From sequence record PQ671645.1: a stretch of DNA of 64,000 nucleotides; one strand, 5' to 3'. Both the position numbers and the translations under genes were made by a program. Positions 2,809-59,883 of this stretch are shown piece by piece. Origin of the DNA: Escherichia phage DCP548. The stretch's first letter is position 1, and every line of letters begins with the position of its first letter. A model generated the notes under the pieces. The model was not told the DNA's origin and ran no database searches. It saw nothing but the letters and a program-made list of their open reading frames with translations.

Positions 2809-3177
2809 TTAATTAAATTTGTTTAAACGTTCAATACACTGGACGTAGTTATTTGCGATTTGTTTCTGGGTAGGCTCTTTACCAGTTGTTTCAACATAGC
2901 GAATGAATGCGATTTCAGTAGCCTGTAGACAATGTTCTTTAACGCGTTGTTCTTTTGACAATGCTACAGTATCAGAATCACGATAACGTTGAGCATGAGC
3001 ATCAGCTTGAATCATTCGATTACCTACAGTAACCGGGTCTTCCACTTCAACTTTAGGTTGGTTGTACTGTTTAACATTCGGGTTATAAATCAATTGGCCA
3101 ACATTATTAGGGATAAAGCCATGGGCACCACATCCGGTTAATCCAAATACCATTGCTAAAGCGATTAATTTTTTCAT
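2809..3177 (-). CDS. putative lipoprotein
   Basis: 122 aa; N-terminal MKKLIALAMVFGLTGC lipobox. Confidence 0.5.
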   Translation of the reverse strand: MKKLIALAMVFGLTGCGAHGFIPNNVGQLIYNPNVKQYNQPKVEVEDPVTVGNRMIQADAHAQRYRDSDTVALSKEQRVKEHCLQATEIAFIRYVETTGKEPTQKQIANNYVQCIERLNKFN

Positions 3178-3198
3178 TTCAATTTCCTCTGTAGTTGA

Positions 3199-3235
3199 TA
3201 GAAAGATAGTAACACATTATGTAGTGCTTGTAAAC
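3199..3235 (-). promoter_or_regulatory. early promoter upstream of lipoprotein gene
   Basis: Minus GTTTAC, about 18 nt, TACTAT. Confidence 0.4.
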
Positions 3236-3237
3236 AG

Positions 3238-3450
3238 CTATTTTAAACTTTTGCGAAATTTGCGTTTTTCTTGACGAATCTGTCGTTTAGTCGGACGTAC
3301 AGCAAATTTAACGAAGTCCACTTTGCCGTGTGGAAACTTTTCAGATGCTTCACAGTCCATCATTAGTTCCCATCCTTCCAGAATAAGAGCTTTCCATTGC
3401 GTAGTTGATGCAAATTCGTATGTCGATGGTTTAAACACAGTTGAATACAT
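3238..3450 (-). CDS. small basic protein, member of a three-copy paralog family
   Basis: 70 aa ending ...FAVRPTKRQIRQEKRKFRKSLK; same C-terminal motif as ORFs at 31248..31427 and 31852..32049. Confidence 0.5.
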   Translation of the reverse strand: MYSTVFKPSTYEFASTTQWKALILEGWELMMDCEASEKFPHGKVDFVKFAVRPTKRQIRQEKRKFRKSLK

Positions 3451-3451
3451 A

Positions 3452-3643
3452 TTATCCTCTTAAATCGGCTTCAAAAACTTTCTCGTCATTAACAAATGCT
3501 TTAACTAATGCTTTGTTCACTTCAGCAAGTTGTACCGCAACCCACTCGATTTCTTCGCGATCACCTGATAACATGATATCTTTAGTGAACATCTCGCCGC
3601 TTTTAAACCAACCGATAAAAGTAACTTTAGTTAATTTGCTCAT
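3452..3643 (-). CDS. dmd: Dmd-like antitoxin (discriminator of mRNA degradation)
   Basis: 63 aa, VTFIGWFK...AEVNKALVKAF resembles remembered T4 Dmd (61.5); position upstream of 61. Confidence 0.6.
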   Translation of the reverse strand: MSKLTKVTFIGWFKSGEMFTKDIMLSGDREEIEWVAVQLAEVNKALVKAFVNDEKVFEADLRG

Positions 3644-50795: not shown

Positions 50796-51268
50796 TCGGT
50801 AATAAAACGTTCAACTTCATTATTCTTGGCTTTTATCTTGTCTTTATGTTCTTGTAAACTACTTTTAATAAGATTAATAATGATGCCTACAGTACCTCCA
50901 CCAATTATACCGCCAATTATACTTACGATAGTAGATGCTAATAAGATAGCAATAATATCAACAAAACCGAAAGAACTCACCTTAGTACTAAAAAACCACA
51001 CTGATGGTACAAATATAATCCATCCTGTTATCCATTGACACTTATTGAAAAACTTTTCAAGCTCAGCTTGAGTTGTTCGTATTACTTCATCGATAGGTTG
51101 ATAACCATTAATATGTCTGTTCACGATAATACCTGCTGGCTGGTCGATTTTAAATTCTTGGCAAATACGTTTCACTAAGTAGGATGGACATCCTGTCCAA
51201 TCCACTGAATAGTACGAAATACCTTCATTGCCGTCGTCAATATTAGACCAATATGTTTTGTTAATCAT
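50777..51268 (-). CDS. membrane protein
   Basis: 163 aa; Gly/Ile-rich TM segments near C-terminus. Confidence 0.45.
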   Translation of the reverse strand: MINKTYWSNIDDGNEGISYYSVDWTGCPSYLVKRICQEFKIDQPAGIIVNRHINGYQPIDEVIRTTQAELEKFFNKCQWITGWIIFVPSVWFFSTKVSSFGFVDIIAILLASTIVSIIGGIIGGGTVGIIINLIKSSLQEHKDKIKAKNNEVERFITECRNLR

Positions 51269-51981
51269 TACCAGCCTTCCATAGGGAATTCCAGATAAAC
51301 TTGAGCGTTGACACGAATTTCGTTGGTAATCTTTTTAACTCGGTCTGTATTACGAGATACACGTCCGAACCAACGCCATCCATTACTAATTGCACGAGAA
51401 CCAGTGTGCCATGTTTGCCAATCAAACTGAAGAAGAGTACGGTCTGGAGCTTCCCATTTCTCTAGTTCGCCTTTTTCGATTTTTTCGAGGACTTCTTTGT
51501 GCCACTGGCGATAGATAAGTTCGCCATCAGGAATCTGACTGAACTCTGCAGTTCCTGTTGCAAAATGAGTAGGACACACATCAGCGTTAACAAGACCAAG
51601 AATATGTTCAGAATGGTAACGAGGGTTGTCATAATCAGGTTGTCCTGCAGTAATAAAGTGTTGACCAACCGGAATATCCGGGCGTGGTACATCATCATGG
51701 TGATAACCTGGGATAGCAGGGTACCAACCGGGCATCAGCATGTGGACTCGTGAATCAAATACAACCTGGTCGGTGTTCCAATCATCAGGCAAGTTCATGA
51801 TGAAGCTGCGAGTAATAGGACCACCGTTATTATAAGCAAATTCTAAACTACAGTTGAAGAACATAGGCTCGTTTTTAATCTGGTCATTTTTAATCGCATG
51901 AGCAAAACCACCTACTGCACGAGCTTGACTATTAAACACTTTAGAACTATTCATATTATTTTCCTCGACATTCTTTAACAA
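51268..51981 (-). CDS. hypothetical protein
   Basis: 237-aa minus ORF; His/Asp-rich stretch GYHHDDVP. Confidence 0.45.
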   Translation of the reverse strand: MLKNVEENNMNSSKVFNSQARAVGGFAHAIKNDQIKNEPMFFNCSLEFAYNNGGPITRSFIMNLPDDWNTDQVVFDSRVHMLMPGWYPAIPGYHHDDVPRPDIPVGQHFITAGQPDYDNPRYHSEHILGLVNADVCPTHFATGTAEFSQIPDGELIYRQWHKEVLEKIEKGELEKWEAPDRTLLQFDWQTWHTGSRAISNGWRWFGRVSRNTDRVKKITNEIRVNAQVYLEFPMEGW

Positions 51982-52261
51982 AATTTTCTAAATCTGTTGA
52001 TTCAATAGCTTTTTTACGAGCTTCAGCGTGTTCTTCTTCAGTTAATCTACGTTTAAACTTGACCCAAACATTATGGTCGAAACCTGTTGTCGCGTATAAT
52101 AACAGAGCACCAACGAATAACAAAAACGGTGATAAAAATACACAACCAGGAACACCGTCCATGCCATAGGCCTTTTGTAATACTGCAACAGAAAGCACAG
52201 CATAAAAAGGTGATGTAAGTATCGTTAAAAGGCCAATTCGGTTGGTTTCGGATAATTTCAT
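51956..52261 (-). CDS. membrane protein
   Basis: Track ORF starts at GTG inside the promoter; trimmed to ATG at 52261 (MKLSETNRIG...) with GGAG RBS. Confidence 0.45.
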   Translation of the reverse strand: MKLSETNRIGLLTILTSPFYAVLSVAVLQKAYGMDGVPGCVFLSPFLLFVGALLLYATTGFDHNVWVKFKRRLTEEEHAEARKKAIESTDLENFVKECRGK

Positions 52262-52280
52262 AATATTCTCCTCATGTTTA

Positions 52281-52318
52281 ATAGGACTACTATAACATAG
52301 TCCTATCAGTTTGTACAC
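52281..52318 (-). promoter_or_regulatory. early promoter with inverted repeat
   Basis: Minus GTGTAC, spacer, TATAGT; inverted repeat ATAGGACTA/TAGTCCTAT. Confidence 0.5.
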
Positions 52319-52519
52319 TTATTTTGACATTTCTTCGATGTCACGACGATACCCATCACGAACTTCACGAAGAGCTTCAAGGCCACACATAGGCTCGATA
52401 CCAGTAATGTGAACTTGATTAATCTGATACTCTACATCTTCTAACTGAGCGAAAACATAACGACGTTCTGCTTCACAACCAGGTTTAGCTTTACCGAAAC
52501 GTTTATTCAAAGTAGTCAT
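52319..52519 (-). CDS. hypothetical small protein
   Basis: Track ORF starts at GTG; trimmed to ATG at 52519 (MTTLNKRF...) with GGAG RBS. Confidence 0.4.
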   Translation of the reverse strand: MTTLNKRFGKAKPGCEAERRYVFAQLEDVEYQINQVHITGIEPMCGLEALREVRDGYRRDIEEMSK

Positions 52520-52547
52520 TTTTATATCTCCATTCACTCATTTGTTT

Positions 52548-52587
52548 TGATAGGTCTATAGTATCAACAACTACAGACCTTGTAAAC
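52548..52587 (-). promoter_or_regulatory. early promoter with inverted repeat
   Basis: Minus GTTTAC at 52587..52582; inverted repeat GGTCTATAGT/ACTACAGACC. Confidence 0.5.
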
Positions 52588-52599
52588 TGTTTTGTGAAA

Positions 52600-53556
52600 T
52601 TATTTGAAAGGTTTTACCATATGAAAGTTTTGTTTGAAACGCTTGACGTAATCGTCGTGTCCTAAGCTTTGGTACATACTTACTACTTTGCTATAATTTT
52701 CCCAAGCGAACTCACGGAACCATCCTGATGTGATTGATGTACAGACCTTTTCAAGGGCCATCATAAAACTATCACGTGGATGGATTTTAAAGTCGTTAGG
52801 AATCTGTGAACGTTCAAGAGCTAATACACAAGCTTCTTCATATACACCGGCTAATTTGACCATTTCTGGTAACGATTCGAACTTCTCGCGTGAGGTCATG
52901 ACTTCAGAACCGTCTTTCATATAAAATGTATACGCTGGACGGTCTGTTAGTGCAATGGCTTCATGAATAGTATCATGGTCATACGTATAGATGTCATCTT
53001 TAAAGAACGCACTTTTAGAAGTGTCAAGAACTGGGTGAGCATAGTTCAAGGTTTCTTTCTGGCGTTTTAGCATAATTTCAGTAAGTTCATCGTTCAGTGT
53101 AACACCTTTACCACGAAGATACTGAATATGGTTCATAGTCTTTAAAAAGAATGGATTATTTTTCTTGAAACGATGAGACATCTTAATTGCAAGACATATC
53201 TCAGGAGTTGCCCAATAAAACCCGTTCAAACGGTCTTTAGACAAATTTTTCTTGGCGTATTTTAAAAGGTCATAAGAAGACGTGAAATCTTCAGGAGTGA
53301 GTTCACCGACTAATTCACGGACATTAGTGATTGCCGGAACAATATATGCTTCAAAATGAGTTTCGCGTCCATTATGGAAGCATTTGAAAACTTGGACATC
53401 AGGGTTATCTTGATGAACATATACACCCATCATTTGATTTTTGAATGCATTCCAAGAACCTTGGTCCGCAATAAAGTCCCAATCGCTATTTTTGATAGCG
53501 CTAGAATCAATAAGACCATGATAGTGAAGTGCACGAGAACCAATAACTAACATCAT
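52600..53556 (-). CDS. hypothetical protein, possible nucleotidyltransferase fold
   Basis: 318 aa; N-terminal LVIGSRALHYHG...SDWDF resembles GS ... DxD. Confidence 0.4.
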   Translation of the reverse strand: MMLVIGSRALHYHGLIDSSAIKNSDWDFIADQGSWNAFKNQMMGVYVHQDNPDVQVFKCFHNGRETHFEAYIVPAITNVRELVGELTPEDFTSSYDLLKYAKKNLSKDRLNGFYWATPEICLAIKMSHRFKKNNPFFLKTMNHIQYLRGKGVTLNDELTEIMLKRQKETLNYAHPVLDTSKSAFFKDDIYTYDHDTIHEAIALTDRPAYTFYMKDGSEVMTSREKFESLPEMVKLAGVYEEACVLALERSQIPNDFKIHPRDSFMMALEKVCTSITSGWFREFAWENYSKVVSMYQSLGHDDYVKRFKQNFHMVKPFK

Positions 53557-53580
53557 AATATTTTCCTCGGATTAATTAAC

Positions 53581-53832
53581 TTAAATTTCACGACATGCGA
53601 TATTATATTCATCCCAGAGGTCGTCATGTGAAGCCTCTACCAATGGAACGATTGTACCGTTTATGTCTTCATTATAAGGGCAAATTGTACAGTGCGCATC
53701 TTCGAATCGGATGCCTTTGTGTTCAGATTTTTTATAACGCATATCAAATATCTTTGCAAACTTTTCACGAGTAATAGTTTTAGCAACTACTTCGGTTCCG
53801 ATACTTTCGTAATAAATCATTGTAGACTCCAT
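53581..53832 (-). CDS. hypothetical protein
   Basis: 83-aa minus ORF; early promoter upstream. Confidence 0.45.
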   Translation of the reverse strand: MESTMIYYESIGTEVVAKTITREKFAKIFDMRYKKSEHKGIRFEDAHCTICPYNEDINGTIVPLVEASHDDLWDEYNIACREI

Positions 53833-53842
53833 TTAATTTGAT

Positions 53843-53878
53843 AGGGCTACTATAACATAGCCCTATCTTGTTGTAAAC
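53843..53878 (-). promoter_or_regulatory. early promoter with inverted repeat
   Basis: Minus GTTTAC at 53878..53873; inverted repeat ATAGGGCT/AGCCCTAT. Confidence 0.5.
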
Positions 53879-53882
53879 TGTT

Positions 53883-54080
53883 TTAGCAAGAATAACTAGA
53901 TGATACCCAGCCTTGAACAGTAATACTATTATTTGATAACGAGATTGCGTCCTGGAGATTCAGACCCGCATTATCTTCAATCCACAATGTAACTTCTTCA
54001 CGCTCTTCGGTTGCAATCTGGAACAGGTTTTCCAGGGCAGCTACTGCCGTACGTACAGCACAATCTAATTCACGAGACAT
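53883..54080 (-). CDS. small protein, WVSSSxxC-terminus family
   Basis: 65 aa ending ...QGWVSSSYSC. Confidence 0.45.
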   Translation of the reverse strand: MSRELDCAVRTAVAALENLFQIATEEREEVTLWIEDNAGLNLQDAISLSNNSITVQGWVSSSYSC

Positions 54081-54089
54081 ATGATTTCC

Positions 54090-54362
54090 TTAACAAGTGT
54101 GAGAAGATGCAACCCAACCACCATCTTCAAGGCTCAAGTTGTAGTCGTATTGGTAAACGTCAGCCCATTCAGCATAACCGTTTTTTGTACAACGTTCAAG
54201 ATCGGCTTTAAGATGTCCTGGTGAATGATAGGTTCCACCCATGCCATAAGCTGGATACAAGTCGAATGTTGTGTTTTGTTTATCAGCAATTTCTTTGGCA
54301 GCCTCAATAGCTGCATAGATTTTTGCTACGGCTTCAGCCAGTTCGGTTTGTTCTTTAGACAT
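54090..54362 (-). CDS. small protein, WVSSSxxC-terminus family
   Basis: 90 aa ending ...DGGWVASSHTC. Confidence 0.45.
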   Translation of the reverse strand: MSKEQTELAEAVAKIYAAIEAAKEIADKQNTTFDLYPAYGMGGTYHSPGHLKADLERCTKNGYAEWADVYQYDYNLSLEDGGWVASSHTC

Positions 54363-54371
54363 AATGATTCC

Positions 54372-54677
54372 TTAGCACAACGCAGAAGACGAAACCCAAG
54401 CACCTTCAGTAATAATGTAACCATTACCTTCACGCTTAACATCGCCACCATTATTTTCAATTTCATCTTTCATCCACTGGGATACGATTTCACCCTTAGG
54501 ATAATAAGTACGACCACTACCATAATCACCTACAGAAAATGATACGGCATATTGGTCTGCGATCTTTGTTGCTTCTTCTTCGATACGTTCAGCTTGATTC
54601 AGAAGTTTATAAATTGCATCTGAAGCGGATTTGGCATCATTAAACTCTGGTACTTTAATTTCAATAATCTTACTCAT
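54372..54677 (-). CDS. small protein, WVSSSxxC-terminus family
   Basis: Ends ...EGAWVSSSALC; trimmed to ATG at 54677 (MSKIIEIK...), matching the MS(K/R) starts of its two paralogs. Confidence 0.45.
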   Translation of the reverse strand: MSKIIEIKVPEFNDAKSASDAIYKLLNQAERIEEEATKIADQYAVSFSVGDYGSGRTYYPKGEIVSQWMKDEIENNGGDVKREGNGYIITEGAWVSSSALC

Positions 54678-55032
54678 TTCTACATTCCTTAATAAAGTTT
54701 TCGATTGTTTCATTTTCACGTCTAGCTAGGAGTTCATTATAACTAATCATTTGAGAAGCGTAAACCTTTTTATTTTTCTTGTTATGGTTTATAAAATCGT
54801 AGTAAAAATAGACTACAGTACAAAAGGATGCGATGGATGCAAAGGCTTGGGTATACCTTAAGTCCTGCCATTGGTCTGTGAATCCACCAGTGTTCCCTAT
54901 AAATCCTAACACAACGCCGTCAATAAGAAATCCAACTAATCCAAAGGCAAATCCCATGCCAATACTCATAATAAAAATTAGAATGTTCTCACCAAGAGAA
55001 GGCCATACGGTTAAGAGTTGAGGCTTTTGCAT
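54670..55032 (-). CDS. membrane protein
   Basis: 120 aa; two TM segments; C-terminal ...FIKECRNE. Confidence 0.45.
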   Translation of the reverse strand: MQKPQLLTVWPSLGENILIFIMSIGMGFAFGLVGFLIDGVVLGFIGNTGGFTDQWQDLRYTQAFASIASFCTVVYFYYDFINHNKKNKKVYASQMISYNELLARRENETIENFIKECRNE

Positions 55033-55436
55033 CTTATTTCCTTAACAAATTCCATAGCTTCTTCATATTCATACTTTTTAACAGCTTCATCATACTGAGC
55101 TTGGGCTTTTGCGCACTGAACTTTCCATTCTCTTAATCGGGCTCTGTGATGACGTCCTTGGTACCAATATCCCACCCAGTTAATAGGCATTAATAAAAAC
55201 GGTACAATAAGTGGTGCGACGAACATTAATGAAAATGCTGCATCAGACGATATAACTTTATTGGAATCTAAAATAGCTCCTATAATCATAAAGATTAAAA
55301 ATGCTAAAGCTAAAATAGGACCAAACAACACTTCATTAGGAATTAATTTACGTTTGTATTCGTATGCCCAGGGCTTAATTGGCATGTATAGGGTTGGCTT
55401 TGACATATTCTCTACATTCCATAATAAATTGCTCAA
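55011..55436 (-). CDS. membrane protein (start uncertain)
   Basis: 141-aa track ORF; N-terminus overlaps upstream gene; C-terminal ...FVKEIRCKS resembles neighbours ending FIKECRNE and FVKECRGK. Confidence 0.4.
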   Translation of the reverse strand: MSNLLWNVENMSKPTLYMPIKPWAYEYKRKLIPNEVLFGPILALAFLIFMIIGAILDSNKVISSDAAFSLMFVAPLIVPFLLMPINWVGYWYQGRHHRARLREWKVQCAKAQAQYDEAVKKYEYEEAMEFVKEIRCKSLNS

Positions 55437-59808: not shown

Positions 59809-59883
59809 TGGTGACCCTGGCTGGTTTCGATCCAGCTACCTATCAGTTATGAGCTGACAGCTCTCCCATTGAGCTACAGGGCC
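59809..59883 (-). tRNA. tRNA, anticodon CAU (Met or Ile2), with encoded CCA
   Basis: Hand-folded cloverleaf on minus strand: acceptor GGCCCTG/CAGGGTC, D-arm GCTC-AATGGGA-GAGC, anticodon loop CTCATAA, T-arm GCTGG-ATCGAAA-CCAGC, 3' ACCA. Confidence 0.7.

Follow-up and report, generated by a model that had tools for sequence, protein, structure and literature searches.

In the 64,000-nucleotide stretch of Escherichia phage DCP548 that we analyzed (PQ671645.1; hereafter, the window), three consecutive genes encode small proteins that share a C-terminal tail with conserved Trp, Ser-Ser, and terminal Cys residues. We find that these proteins belong to a family in which the tail is invariant and terminal and that this family is exclusively and directionally linked to a gene, ORF134c, whose product combines an N-terminal DUF7277 and a C-terminal DUF7275 domain and bears motifs suggestive of a nucleotidyltransferase. 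The presence of this partner gene downstream of the array is the most informative feature of the locus, and the tail proteins and ORF134c probably work together. Because the tag is the one element common to all members of the family, we give about an even chance to the reading that it is a shared handle, i.e., a docking or acceptor tag, by which one to six small proteins engage ORF134c.

An earlier sequence-only reading of the window had placed three tandem paralogs at 53883 to 54677, with a conserved tail and diverged upstream regions, and both parts of this description held up. The open reading frames (ORFs; paralogs A, B, and C in Table 1) lie at exactly these coordinates, follow one another in a single reading frame of the minus strand, and end in ...EGAWVSSSALC (A), ...DGGWVASSHTC (B), and ...QGWVSSSYSC (C). 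Their bodies are homologous (BLASTP E values of 2e-6, 2e-4, and 6e-4), with a pairwise identity of about 30%, as opposed to 5 to 6 of 8 residues in the tails. The pattern W[VIL][SAT]S[SAT]xxC occurs three times in the six-frame translation of the window, each time directly before the stop codon of one of the paralogs, and a looser version was found in just 11 of 18,107 control ORFs of related loci (see below), so that three in a row cannot be attributed to chance. At the DNA level, the tails share 15 to 16 of 24 nucleotides (nt), and they use AGT, TCT, TCA, or TCG for Ser and TGC or TGT for Cys, which points to conservation and selection at the peptide level; an origin of the tails as a DNA repeat or gene-conversion artifact was considered and is ruled out by the same figures (about 65% DNA identity and differing Ser and Cys codons). 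The array has spacers of 9 nt each with GGA Shine-Dalgarno-like sequences (GGAATCATT, GGAAATCAT), and the start of paralog A overlaps the stop of the upstream gene e.3 by 8 nt. A second motif, YGxGxTYYP, is present in A and B and missing from the 65-amino-acid (aa) paralog C; hence, this predicted hairpin is not obligatory for the family. Plus-strand ORFs overlapping the array (66, 47, 105, and 34 aa) were rejected as candidates, as they have no match in a comparison limited to the family profile and their orientation opposes the conserved gene direction.

The window is about 97% identical to RB69-type T4-like phages (Mosigvirus), including SSE1, JS09, APCEc01, and SA79RD. In the RB69 reference (NC_004928; locus L109, 5735 to 6041), the counterpart of the 101-aa gene is broken into two, ORF138c (33 aa) and ORF139c (71 aa), of which the latter ends in ...VSQWYEK and has no tail; this split reflects either a frameshift or a sequencing error, and the window copy (paralog A) is intact. 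The 90-aa paralog is likewise found in a frameshifted 75-aa form in phage mar005P1 (P0018).

An exhaustive search with an 11-sequence profile hidden Markov model (HMM) against 1.84 billion representatives recovered, at E ≤ 1e-3, 574 cluster representatives (clusters at 50% identity). Among the top 146 of these 574 matches, from which we took all residue statistics, the terminal residue is Cys in 136, and Cys is followed by one further residue in 8. Numbering back from the terminal Cys, W(-7), S(-4), and C(0) are found in 136 of 136 and S(-3) is found in 133 of 136; position -5 is occupied by S, A, or P, Gly prevails at positions -9 and -8, acidic residues prevail at positions -11 and -10, and most members have Q, S, E, A, or H at position -2. 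The consensus is thus [DE][DE]-G-G-W-x-[SAP]-S-S-x-x-C at the extreme C terminus, with the spacing from SS to C varying between 0 and 3 residues in divergent members. The profile-matched region reaches the last residue in nearly all matches, and no domain is fused downstream of the tail among the top 150. In the bodies, the YGMGGTYYP motif is nearly invariant at Y52, G53, G55, and Y58 (paralog A numbering; 149 sequences). The tag nevertheless outlasts the rest of the protein, being kept in the 65-aa copy without the hairpin and in ORFs of related loci that are caught by the bare tail pattern and missed by the family HMM. The proteins are acidic (median net charge, -7.5; isoelectric point [pI], about 4.5), and each has a single invariant Cys, with no second conserved Cys in the same chain. 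The family is a large, phage-specific one of small acidic cytoplasmic proteins, whose body plan comprises an N-terminal helix, usually a YGxGGTYYP β-hairpin, a variable acidic stretch, and the obligatory C-terminal tag.

The sequence-only reading had made its proposal depend on conservation of the tail in orthologs from related phages, and we find the tail kept in Dhakavirus, Karamvirus, Aeromonas, and rV5-like phages and, more widely, in Pseudomonas phiPsa374-like phages, Myxococcus phage Mx1, and jumbo-phage contigs. Word-indexed searches gave, for example, the endings ...GYWMSSSDQC in Aeromonas phage CC2 and ...GGWVASSQTC in contigs of 360 to 370 kb, and tblastn recovered relatives in 484 GenBank phage records that include the rV5-like and phiPsa374-like phages. 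Paralogs A and B fall in phrog_899 and paralog C falls in phrog_4882, both PHROGs of unknown function. Pfam and NCBIfam scans of the tail proteins matched no model, and scans of these proteins and all of their neighbors with Pfam, NCBIfam, and PHROG models returned only families of unknown function. A BFVD structure search with a tail protein recovered only family members; no solved structural neighbor was found, and there was no fold match to PII or HEPN. The source names for the exact tail-protein sequences are all "hypothetical," and the UniRef cluster name "Ig-like domain-containing protein" attached to one family sequence looks like an automatic label. The literature that we searched holds no description of these ORFs, of the DUFs, of such a tag, or of the gene pair. 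Divergent endings were also observed, such as W-x-P-S-S-L-G-C, W-Y-S-S-H-C, W-x-G-S-S-C, and ...SSSICW, and three proteins (P0043, P0124, and P0149) repeat W-x-S-S-(x)-[CG] units two or three times ahead of the terminal tag, e.g., ...RWESSSEGWESSSEGWVSSSSQC.

We evaluated the gene contexts of 80 IMG/VR viral loci seeded on ORF134c homologs (38 to 98% identity; contigs of 8 to 389 kb). The family HMM detected tail ORFs in 72 of the 80 loci, always upstream of and on the same strand as the enzyme gene, in one (29 loci), two (27 loci), three (13 loci), or six (3 loci) copies; with the bare tail pattern, 78 of the 80 were positive, with one to six tail ORFs per locus, the exceptions being L036 and L040. 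When every stop-to-stop ORF was taken, the pattern was found in 204 of 2,125 same-strand ORFs within 3 kb upstream of the enzyme gene, compared with 2 of 1,915 further upstream, 6 of 4,079 downstream, and 3 of 12,113 on the opposite strand (11 of 18,107 in total), an enrichment of about 160-fold over the background. In one locus (L096), the contig ends before the upstream region, and for this reason its sole match is a distant one on the downstream side of the enzyme gene. All-versus-all BLAST clustering of the same-strand ORFs placed DUF7275 in 80 of 80 loci and the main tail cluster in 67 (143 ORFs). The next-largest neighbor cluster (29 loci) itself has a tail-type ending (...WYPSSC), and the most frequent tail-less neighbor family is present in only 26 of 80 loci; since these clusters are far less frequent than the tail family, the linkage stands well above general T4-type synteny. 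In the window, about 330 bp separate the end of the last tail gene at 53883 from the start of ORF134c at 53556 on the same strand; across the loci, the median of this gap is about 600 nt, and seven loci have gaps of ≤15 nt. Five or six tail ORFs were seen in some loci (L087, 413 to 3421; L089, 4362 to 7367; L092, 4552 to 7537; and L051, L074, and L083), and three loci have one tail ORF directly downstream of the enzyme gene.

The linkage is also seen when the search is begun from the tail. In loci seeded on tail genes, for which a back-translated DNA pattern of YGMGGTYYP was among the seeds, DUF7275 lies downstream on the same strand in 11 of 11 with enough downstream DNA. Two very distant metagenomic loci of the tail family had first shown this arrangement, with DUF7275 as the first to third gene after the tail gene. 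Wherever the flank was long enough, searches met no tail-family ORF that stood apart from DUF7275. The order is kept outside the Straboviridae in rV5-like phages (in tuntematon, the tail ORF at 133236 to 133445 and DUF7275 at 133557 to 134489 are 112 nt apart). The counts of the two families in GenBank phages agree closely by genus, namely, 252/259 for Escherichia, 59/59 for Aeromonas, 34/35 for Klebsiella, 34/36 for Enterobacter, and 18/18 for Shigella. A scan of one genome per species for 185,579 bacterial and archaeal species returned five DUF7275 loci, all on contigs of metagenome-assembled genomes and four of them with upstream tail ORFs, indicating that the module is viral and essentially absent from cellular genomes. 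In T4, e.2 overlaps e.3 by 4 nt (locus L111, 67652 to 68319), and in RB69-type phages about 3.1 kb, comprising ORF132c to ORF139c with the enzyme gene and the tail array, lie between them (L109, 66404 to 70396; window, about 51200 to 54700). This block is thus a cassette-like insertion/deletion difference between T4 and RB69.

These contexts bear directly on the alternative that the tail acts independently of ORF134c, as a thiol, metal, or disulfide site, an oligomerization element, or a host-binding motif, with adjacency reflecting a shared pathway or co-inheritance. The single invariant Cys would suggest intermolecular chemistry, the strong acidity is like that of many host-targeting early proteins, promoter and hairpin signals stand between the array and the enzyme gene in this phage, and two enzyme-bearing loci have no tails. 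Yet tail ORFs keep to the 3 kb that precede the enzyme gene, no other gene co-varies with DUF7275 over homologs ranging from 98% to 38% identity and across virus families, and the tail family was not encountered apart from DUF7275 in loci with sufficient flank. We regard such independence as quite unlikely. Of the roles that the sequence-only reading had offered for the tail, namely, modification, targeting, or metal binding, the linkage to a nucleotidyltransferase-like gene, which that reading had not remarked, speaks for modification or docking at the tail more than for a stand-alone metal site or a signal for cellular targeting.

ORF134c matches phrog_2141 (E = 6e-150). In the N-terminal domain, 34 to 35 diverse homologs share invariant G5, S6, D24, and D26, followed by a hydrophobic-E-hydrophobic strand, in the form [FY]-E-x-x-I. 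At the motif level, GS...DxD with h-E-h is the signature of minimal polymerase β (pol-β)-type nucleotidyltransferases, and some GenBank annotators name homologs of ORF134c "putative nucleotidyltransferase"; we consider the arguments for and against catalytic nucleotidyl transfer by the predicted enzyme to be evenly balanced. The C-terminal domain has as invariants K124, H127, H173, D192-H193-D194, H197, E239, E240, E247, R248, C271, S273, S276, and R280. The likeness of H127...H193-D194...H197/E239 to the HD phosphohydrolase signature is a resemblance only, with 0 of 35 homologs matching an HD-domain Pfam model at E ≤ 5. Likewise, no match to DUF1814, HEPN, or NTase_sub_bind was recovered for any of the 35, and the R-x(4-6)-H motif is absent from the tail proteins.

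DUF7275 homologs of Streptomyces, Gordonia, and Vibrio (KVP40-type) phages, the only three of this kind found, have no tail ORF nearby. All three have Ile for Cys271 and have lost R164, H173, S276, and R280, and they retain K124, H127, H193, D194, H197, E239, E240, E247, and R248. A Cys, a His, and two Arg residues would be the expected set for holding a C-terminal Cys and its carboxylate, and their co-variation with the presence of the tail, based on three very divergent sequences from two or three lineages, is only suggestive. The tail-less DUF7275 genes are flanked by another small family with the motif ...YFKKTGYYxSWD...EVxP... (L105, 4630 to 4968 and 5011 to 5322; L106, 4600 to 4893; L108, 3360 to 3656), which may be an alternative partner of DUF7275; homology of the tail family to this one was rejected (hhalign probability, 0.1%). 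In Bacillus phage G, gp205 (DUF7275 with Cys271 kept; L107, 3494 to 4498) is preceded by gp204 (3106 to 3459), a helical protein with a very acidic C terminus (...EEEETSSSW) that is tail-like in composition and has no Cys. RNA-repair or tRNA genes, namely, those for Rnl1 and PNKP, an RNA ligase, a tRNA array, and a poly(A)-polymerase-like gene, lie a few kilobases from DUF7275 in unrelated phages (Table 1), which may hint at action of the enzyme on RNA ends or be a coincidence.

The partner-specific residues Cys271, H173, R164, and R280, lost where tail proteins are absent, also figure in the main rival to a reading in which the small proteins are clients of a modifying enzyme. In this rival, the tail is an inhibitory plug, antitoxin-like or in the manner of a "cysteine switch," and the acidic proteins neutralize or time a potentially harmful ORF134c. 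The tail would enter the His/Asp/Glu-rich center, and its thiolate and carboxylate would bind the metal or Arg residues. We judge this rival unlikely. The gene order speaks for it: the gene for a small acidic protein precedes, on the same strand and at times with a gap of 0 to 15 nt, that for a larger nucleotidyltransferase-like protein, which is the architecture of nucleotidyltransferase toxin-antitoxin pairs such as MenT/MenA1 (PMC10435456). The tolerance of a penultimate Cys in 8 members also fits a ligand better than it fits carboxylate chemistry. On the other hand, one inhibitor would do, yet one to six long-retained paralogs with different bodies are kept in conserved order; ORF134c is not basic (pI, about 6.1 to 6.7); the 35 homologs match no DUF1814, HEPN, or other toxin family; and in RB69 the 101-aa copy is frameshifted with the enzyme gene retained.

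In the reading that we prefer, with the tail as a shared handle, the tail would dock in the DUF7275 domain and its invariant Ser-Ser or terminal Cys would be presented to the GS...DxD active site. ORF134c could then nucleotidylylate or otherwise covalently modify the tail, making the small proteins clients of one "writer"; equally compatible would be a role of the small proteins as adaptors that bring different targets to ORF134c. The diverged bodies of these long-retained paralogs would carry individual functions. We favor many clients for one writer because several distinct, long-retained paralog types co-occur in conserved order with a single enzyme gene. The components of this proposal differ in strength. 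A physical interaction of the tail proteins with ORF134c is likely, and it is doubtful that the tail would serve as an acceptor instead of a mere anchor. We can only tentatively propose a phage-specific system in which the DUF7277-DUF7275 enzyme modifies the tag of an effector array or recruits the effectors as interchangeable adaptors via the tag; such a system would be carried by more than 700 sequenced large phages and be absent from cells. To judge from gene position and the promoter-like sites, expression of the cassette probably falls in the early or middle period, and the cassette would probably act in host takeover or counter-defense.

Two further chemistries would also make use of a C-terminal Cys. 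In the first, ORF134c would activate the tail in the manner of a ubiquitin-like or carrier protein, adenylating the C-terminal carboxylate, forming a thioester on Cys271, and conjugating it to a target, or else the terminal Cys would carry a persulfide or acyl group. The position of the domain always at the extreme C terminus of free-standing small proteins and the invariant Cys of the enzyme agree with this idea; it is nonetheless very improbable, given that the tail proteins have no Gly-Gly end and no β-grasp fold and that 8 members have one residue past the Cys. Moreover, known E1 enzymes have a ThiF/MoeB Rossmann fold, as against the GS...DxD motif of ORF134c. In the second, the tail would form a ring as in ribosomally synthesized and posttranslationally modified peptides, with Ser(-3) dehydrated upon activation by ORF134c and the C-terminal Cys oxidatively decarboxylated to give aminovinyl-cysteine (AviCys) or lanthionine, as is the case in epidermin-type peptides. 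The S-x-x-C-COOH ending is the arrangement from which AviCys is formed, LanD enzymes acting on the C-terminal Cys (PMC8549060), and several "precursors" stand beside one enzyme gene. This is the least probable of the readings considered here: position -2 of the tag does not conform to the EpiD recognition rule [VILMFYW]-[ASVTCIL]-Cys (PMC8549060), the SS-to-C spacing varies and a residue past the Cys is tolerated as noted above, the proteins are folded domains of 65 to 100 aa, and genes for a flavoprotein decarboxylase, LanB/C/M, or radical-SAM enzymes are not among the conserved neighbors.

Several observations weigh against the shared-handle reading. With regard to linkage, many of the sampled loci are from related T4-type phages, so that some of it is inherited synteny; array and enzyme gene do not abut but are a median of about 600 nt apart; L040 and the CC31-like L036 encode a Cys271-bearing enzyme with no tail ORF within 6 kb; and in the window a hairpin and a promoter-like site part the array from ORF135c and ORF134c. 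With regard to the enzyme, the GS-to-DxD spacer is 17 residues in the window protein and about 9 to 19 across homologs, compared with the classical 9 to 13. The Pfam scan of the 35 homologs at E ≤ 5 gave no consistent second family (one weak DUF6036 match, E = 0.053), PDB sequence profile searches with full-length ORF134c and its N-terminal domain returned no matches, and the AlphaFold2 (AF2) model made without an alignment is unusable (predicted local distance difference test [pLDDT], 37), leaving the nucleotidyltransferase fold to rest on motifs. The small number and the divergence of the tail-less homologs count in the same direction. With regard to the tail itself, AF2 places the Trp of paralog A in a β-strand (pLDDT, about 84), and part of the conservation could be structural.

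Among the features around the array (Table 1), ORF135c has no tail, is not among the widely shared neighbor clusters of the 80 loci, and is not conserved across distant loci; it is probably outside the module for these reasons. The strong hairpin that follows the array is not accompanied by a U-tract on the coding strand; instead of a terminator, it could be an element for RNA processing or stability. SA79RD annotates the equivalent of the sigma-70/MotA-type promoter-like site inside e.3 as a T4-type middle promoter, and these signals weakly suggest early or middle transcription of the array and ORF134c cassette, possibly as two units in this phage. The label "sulfurtransferase" in phage JK45 was traced to the e.4 homolog (L001, 4217 to 4612; window, 55011 to 55436), not to a tail gene, and Pfam and PHROG searches give it no support there. 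The JK45 record is filed under Tequatrovirus, although in the 4.4-kb region that we compared it shares 96.7% identity with this Mosigvirus window. The only tRNA gene in the window is one for tRNA-Met (CAT), at 59809 to 59883 on the minus strand.

Table 1. Positions of the tail array, the candidate partner gene, and associated features (window coordinates unless a locus is named)
Feature	Position	Strand	Evidence or remark
Tail-family paralog A (101 aa; RB69 ORF138c + ORF139c)	54372..54677	-	phrog_899 E = 3.5e-22; family HMM E = 9e-22; AF2 pLDDT 89
Tail-family paralog B (90 aa; RB69 ORF137c)	54090..54362	-	phrog_899 E = 4.8e-19; family HMM E = 6e-24
Tail-family paralog C (65 aa; RB69 ORF136c), shortened form	53883..54080	-	phrog_4882 E = 1.1e-36; family HMM E = 1e-4
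Tail WVSSSALC, paralog A	54375..54398	-	W94, S97, S98, C101 invariant in alignment A1
Tail WVASSHTC, paralog B	54093..54116	-	Pattern scan
Tail WVSSSYSC, paralog C	53886..53909	-	Pattern scan
Second family motif, paralog A, Y52-G-S-G-R-T-Y-Y-P60	54498..54524	-	Predicted β-hairpin (AF2)
Second family motif, paralog B, Y39-G-M-G-G-T-Y-H-S47	54222..54248	-	Alignment
ORF134c (318 aa), N-terminal DUF7277 + C-terminal DUF7275, inferred partner	52600..53556	-	Pfam E = 1e-79 and 1e-27
ORF135c (79-83 aa), between array and ORF134c, no tail	53581..53832	-	phrog_3723, unknown function
Hairpin, 10-bp stem, right after array	53840..53867	.	Annotated terminator in phage SA79RD
Sigma-70-like site TTTACA-17-TATAGT overlapping hairpin	53877..53849	coding strand	Consensus match
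Promoter-like site TTTACG-17-TATAAT inside e.3, 60-90 nt upstream of array	54736..54764	-	Consensus match only
RNA-repair/tRNA-related neighbors of DUF7275	L003 689-3478; L105 2064-2723; L106 5850-8011; L107 1-762

The hyperplastic regions of T4-type phages hold many small "hypothetical" early genes that are hard to study singly, and three of these are now part of a defined two-component module. The tag is sharply defined, with four near-invariant C-terminal residues, and only one enzyme is a candidate for its partner. The module is present in about 480 to 730 phages in GenBank and amounts to at least 574 clusters at 50% identity, covering T4-type, rV5-type, phiPsa374-type, and jumbo phages, and it is widespread in therapy phages and model systems. 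If the enzyme does write on the tag, this would be a new viral protein modification or posttranslational control and a handle on the reprogramming or disarming of the host; if the tail is instead an active-site plug, phages would carry a means of controlling a nucleotidyltransferase in toxin-antitoxin fashion.

The window proteins clearly belong to existing computational clusters (phrog_899 and phrog_4882 for the tail proteins; phrog_2141 and DUF7277 plus DUF7275 for the partner), for which neither a function nor a motif is described and no link between tail and partner is recorded. Among characterized systems, MntA-HepT and GlnD-PII have a pol-β-fold enzyme that attaches AMP or UMP covalently to a hydroxyl side chain of a small partner, the acceptor being a Tyr in a loop, and GlnD couples its nucleotidyltransferase domain to a His/Asp-rich HD domain. 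The tail family, in contrast, offers a Ser-Ser/Cys C-terminal tag, and no HEPN, PII, or HD Pfam match was found. The acidic early phage proteins Ocr, Arn, and Dmd act as DNA mimics or as inhibitors of host enzymes. The tail proteins resemble them in being small, very acidic, and encoded in early/middle regions, in arrays in the T4-type hyperplastic regions; however, Ocr, Arn, and Dmd are not known to carry an invariant tag at the C terminus or to be paired with a dedicated enzyme, and no structural similarity to the tail family was detected. With EpiA-EpiD, the family shares a C-terminal Cys with Ser at the third position before it, as well as the grouping of several precursor-like genes with one for a modifying enzyme, and it differs in failing the EpiD rule and in its variable spacing, absence of LanD/B/C/M neighbors, and folded bodies.

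The gene order, with the small protein upstream, is the same as in MenT-MenA and AbiEii-AbiEi. MenT-type toxins are bipartite, with N-terminal pol-β motifs I and II and a C-terminal catalytic/substrate domain, and are encoded beside a small controlling partner, of which the MenA1 antitoxin (68 aa) is an example (PMC10435456). Unlike these pairs, 0 of 35 ORF134c homologs match DUF1814, and the tail module is restricted to phages and can have as many as six partners for one enzyme; nothing in MenA or AbiEi corresponds to the invariant C-terminal Cys tag. A pol-β-type enzyme with a small protein partner is thus known already as a general kind, and what is new here is the C-terminal Cys tag, the multiparalog arrays, and the restriction to phages.

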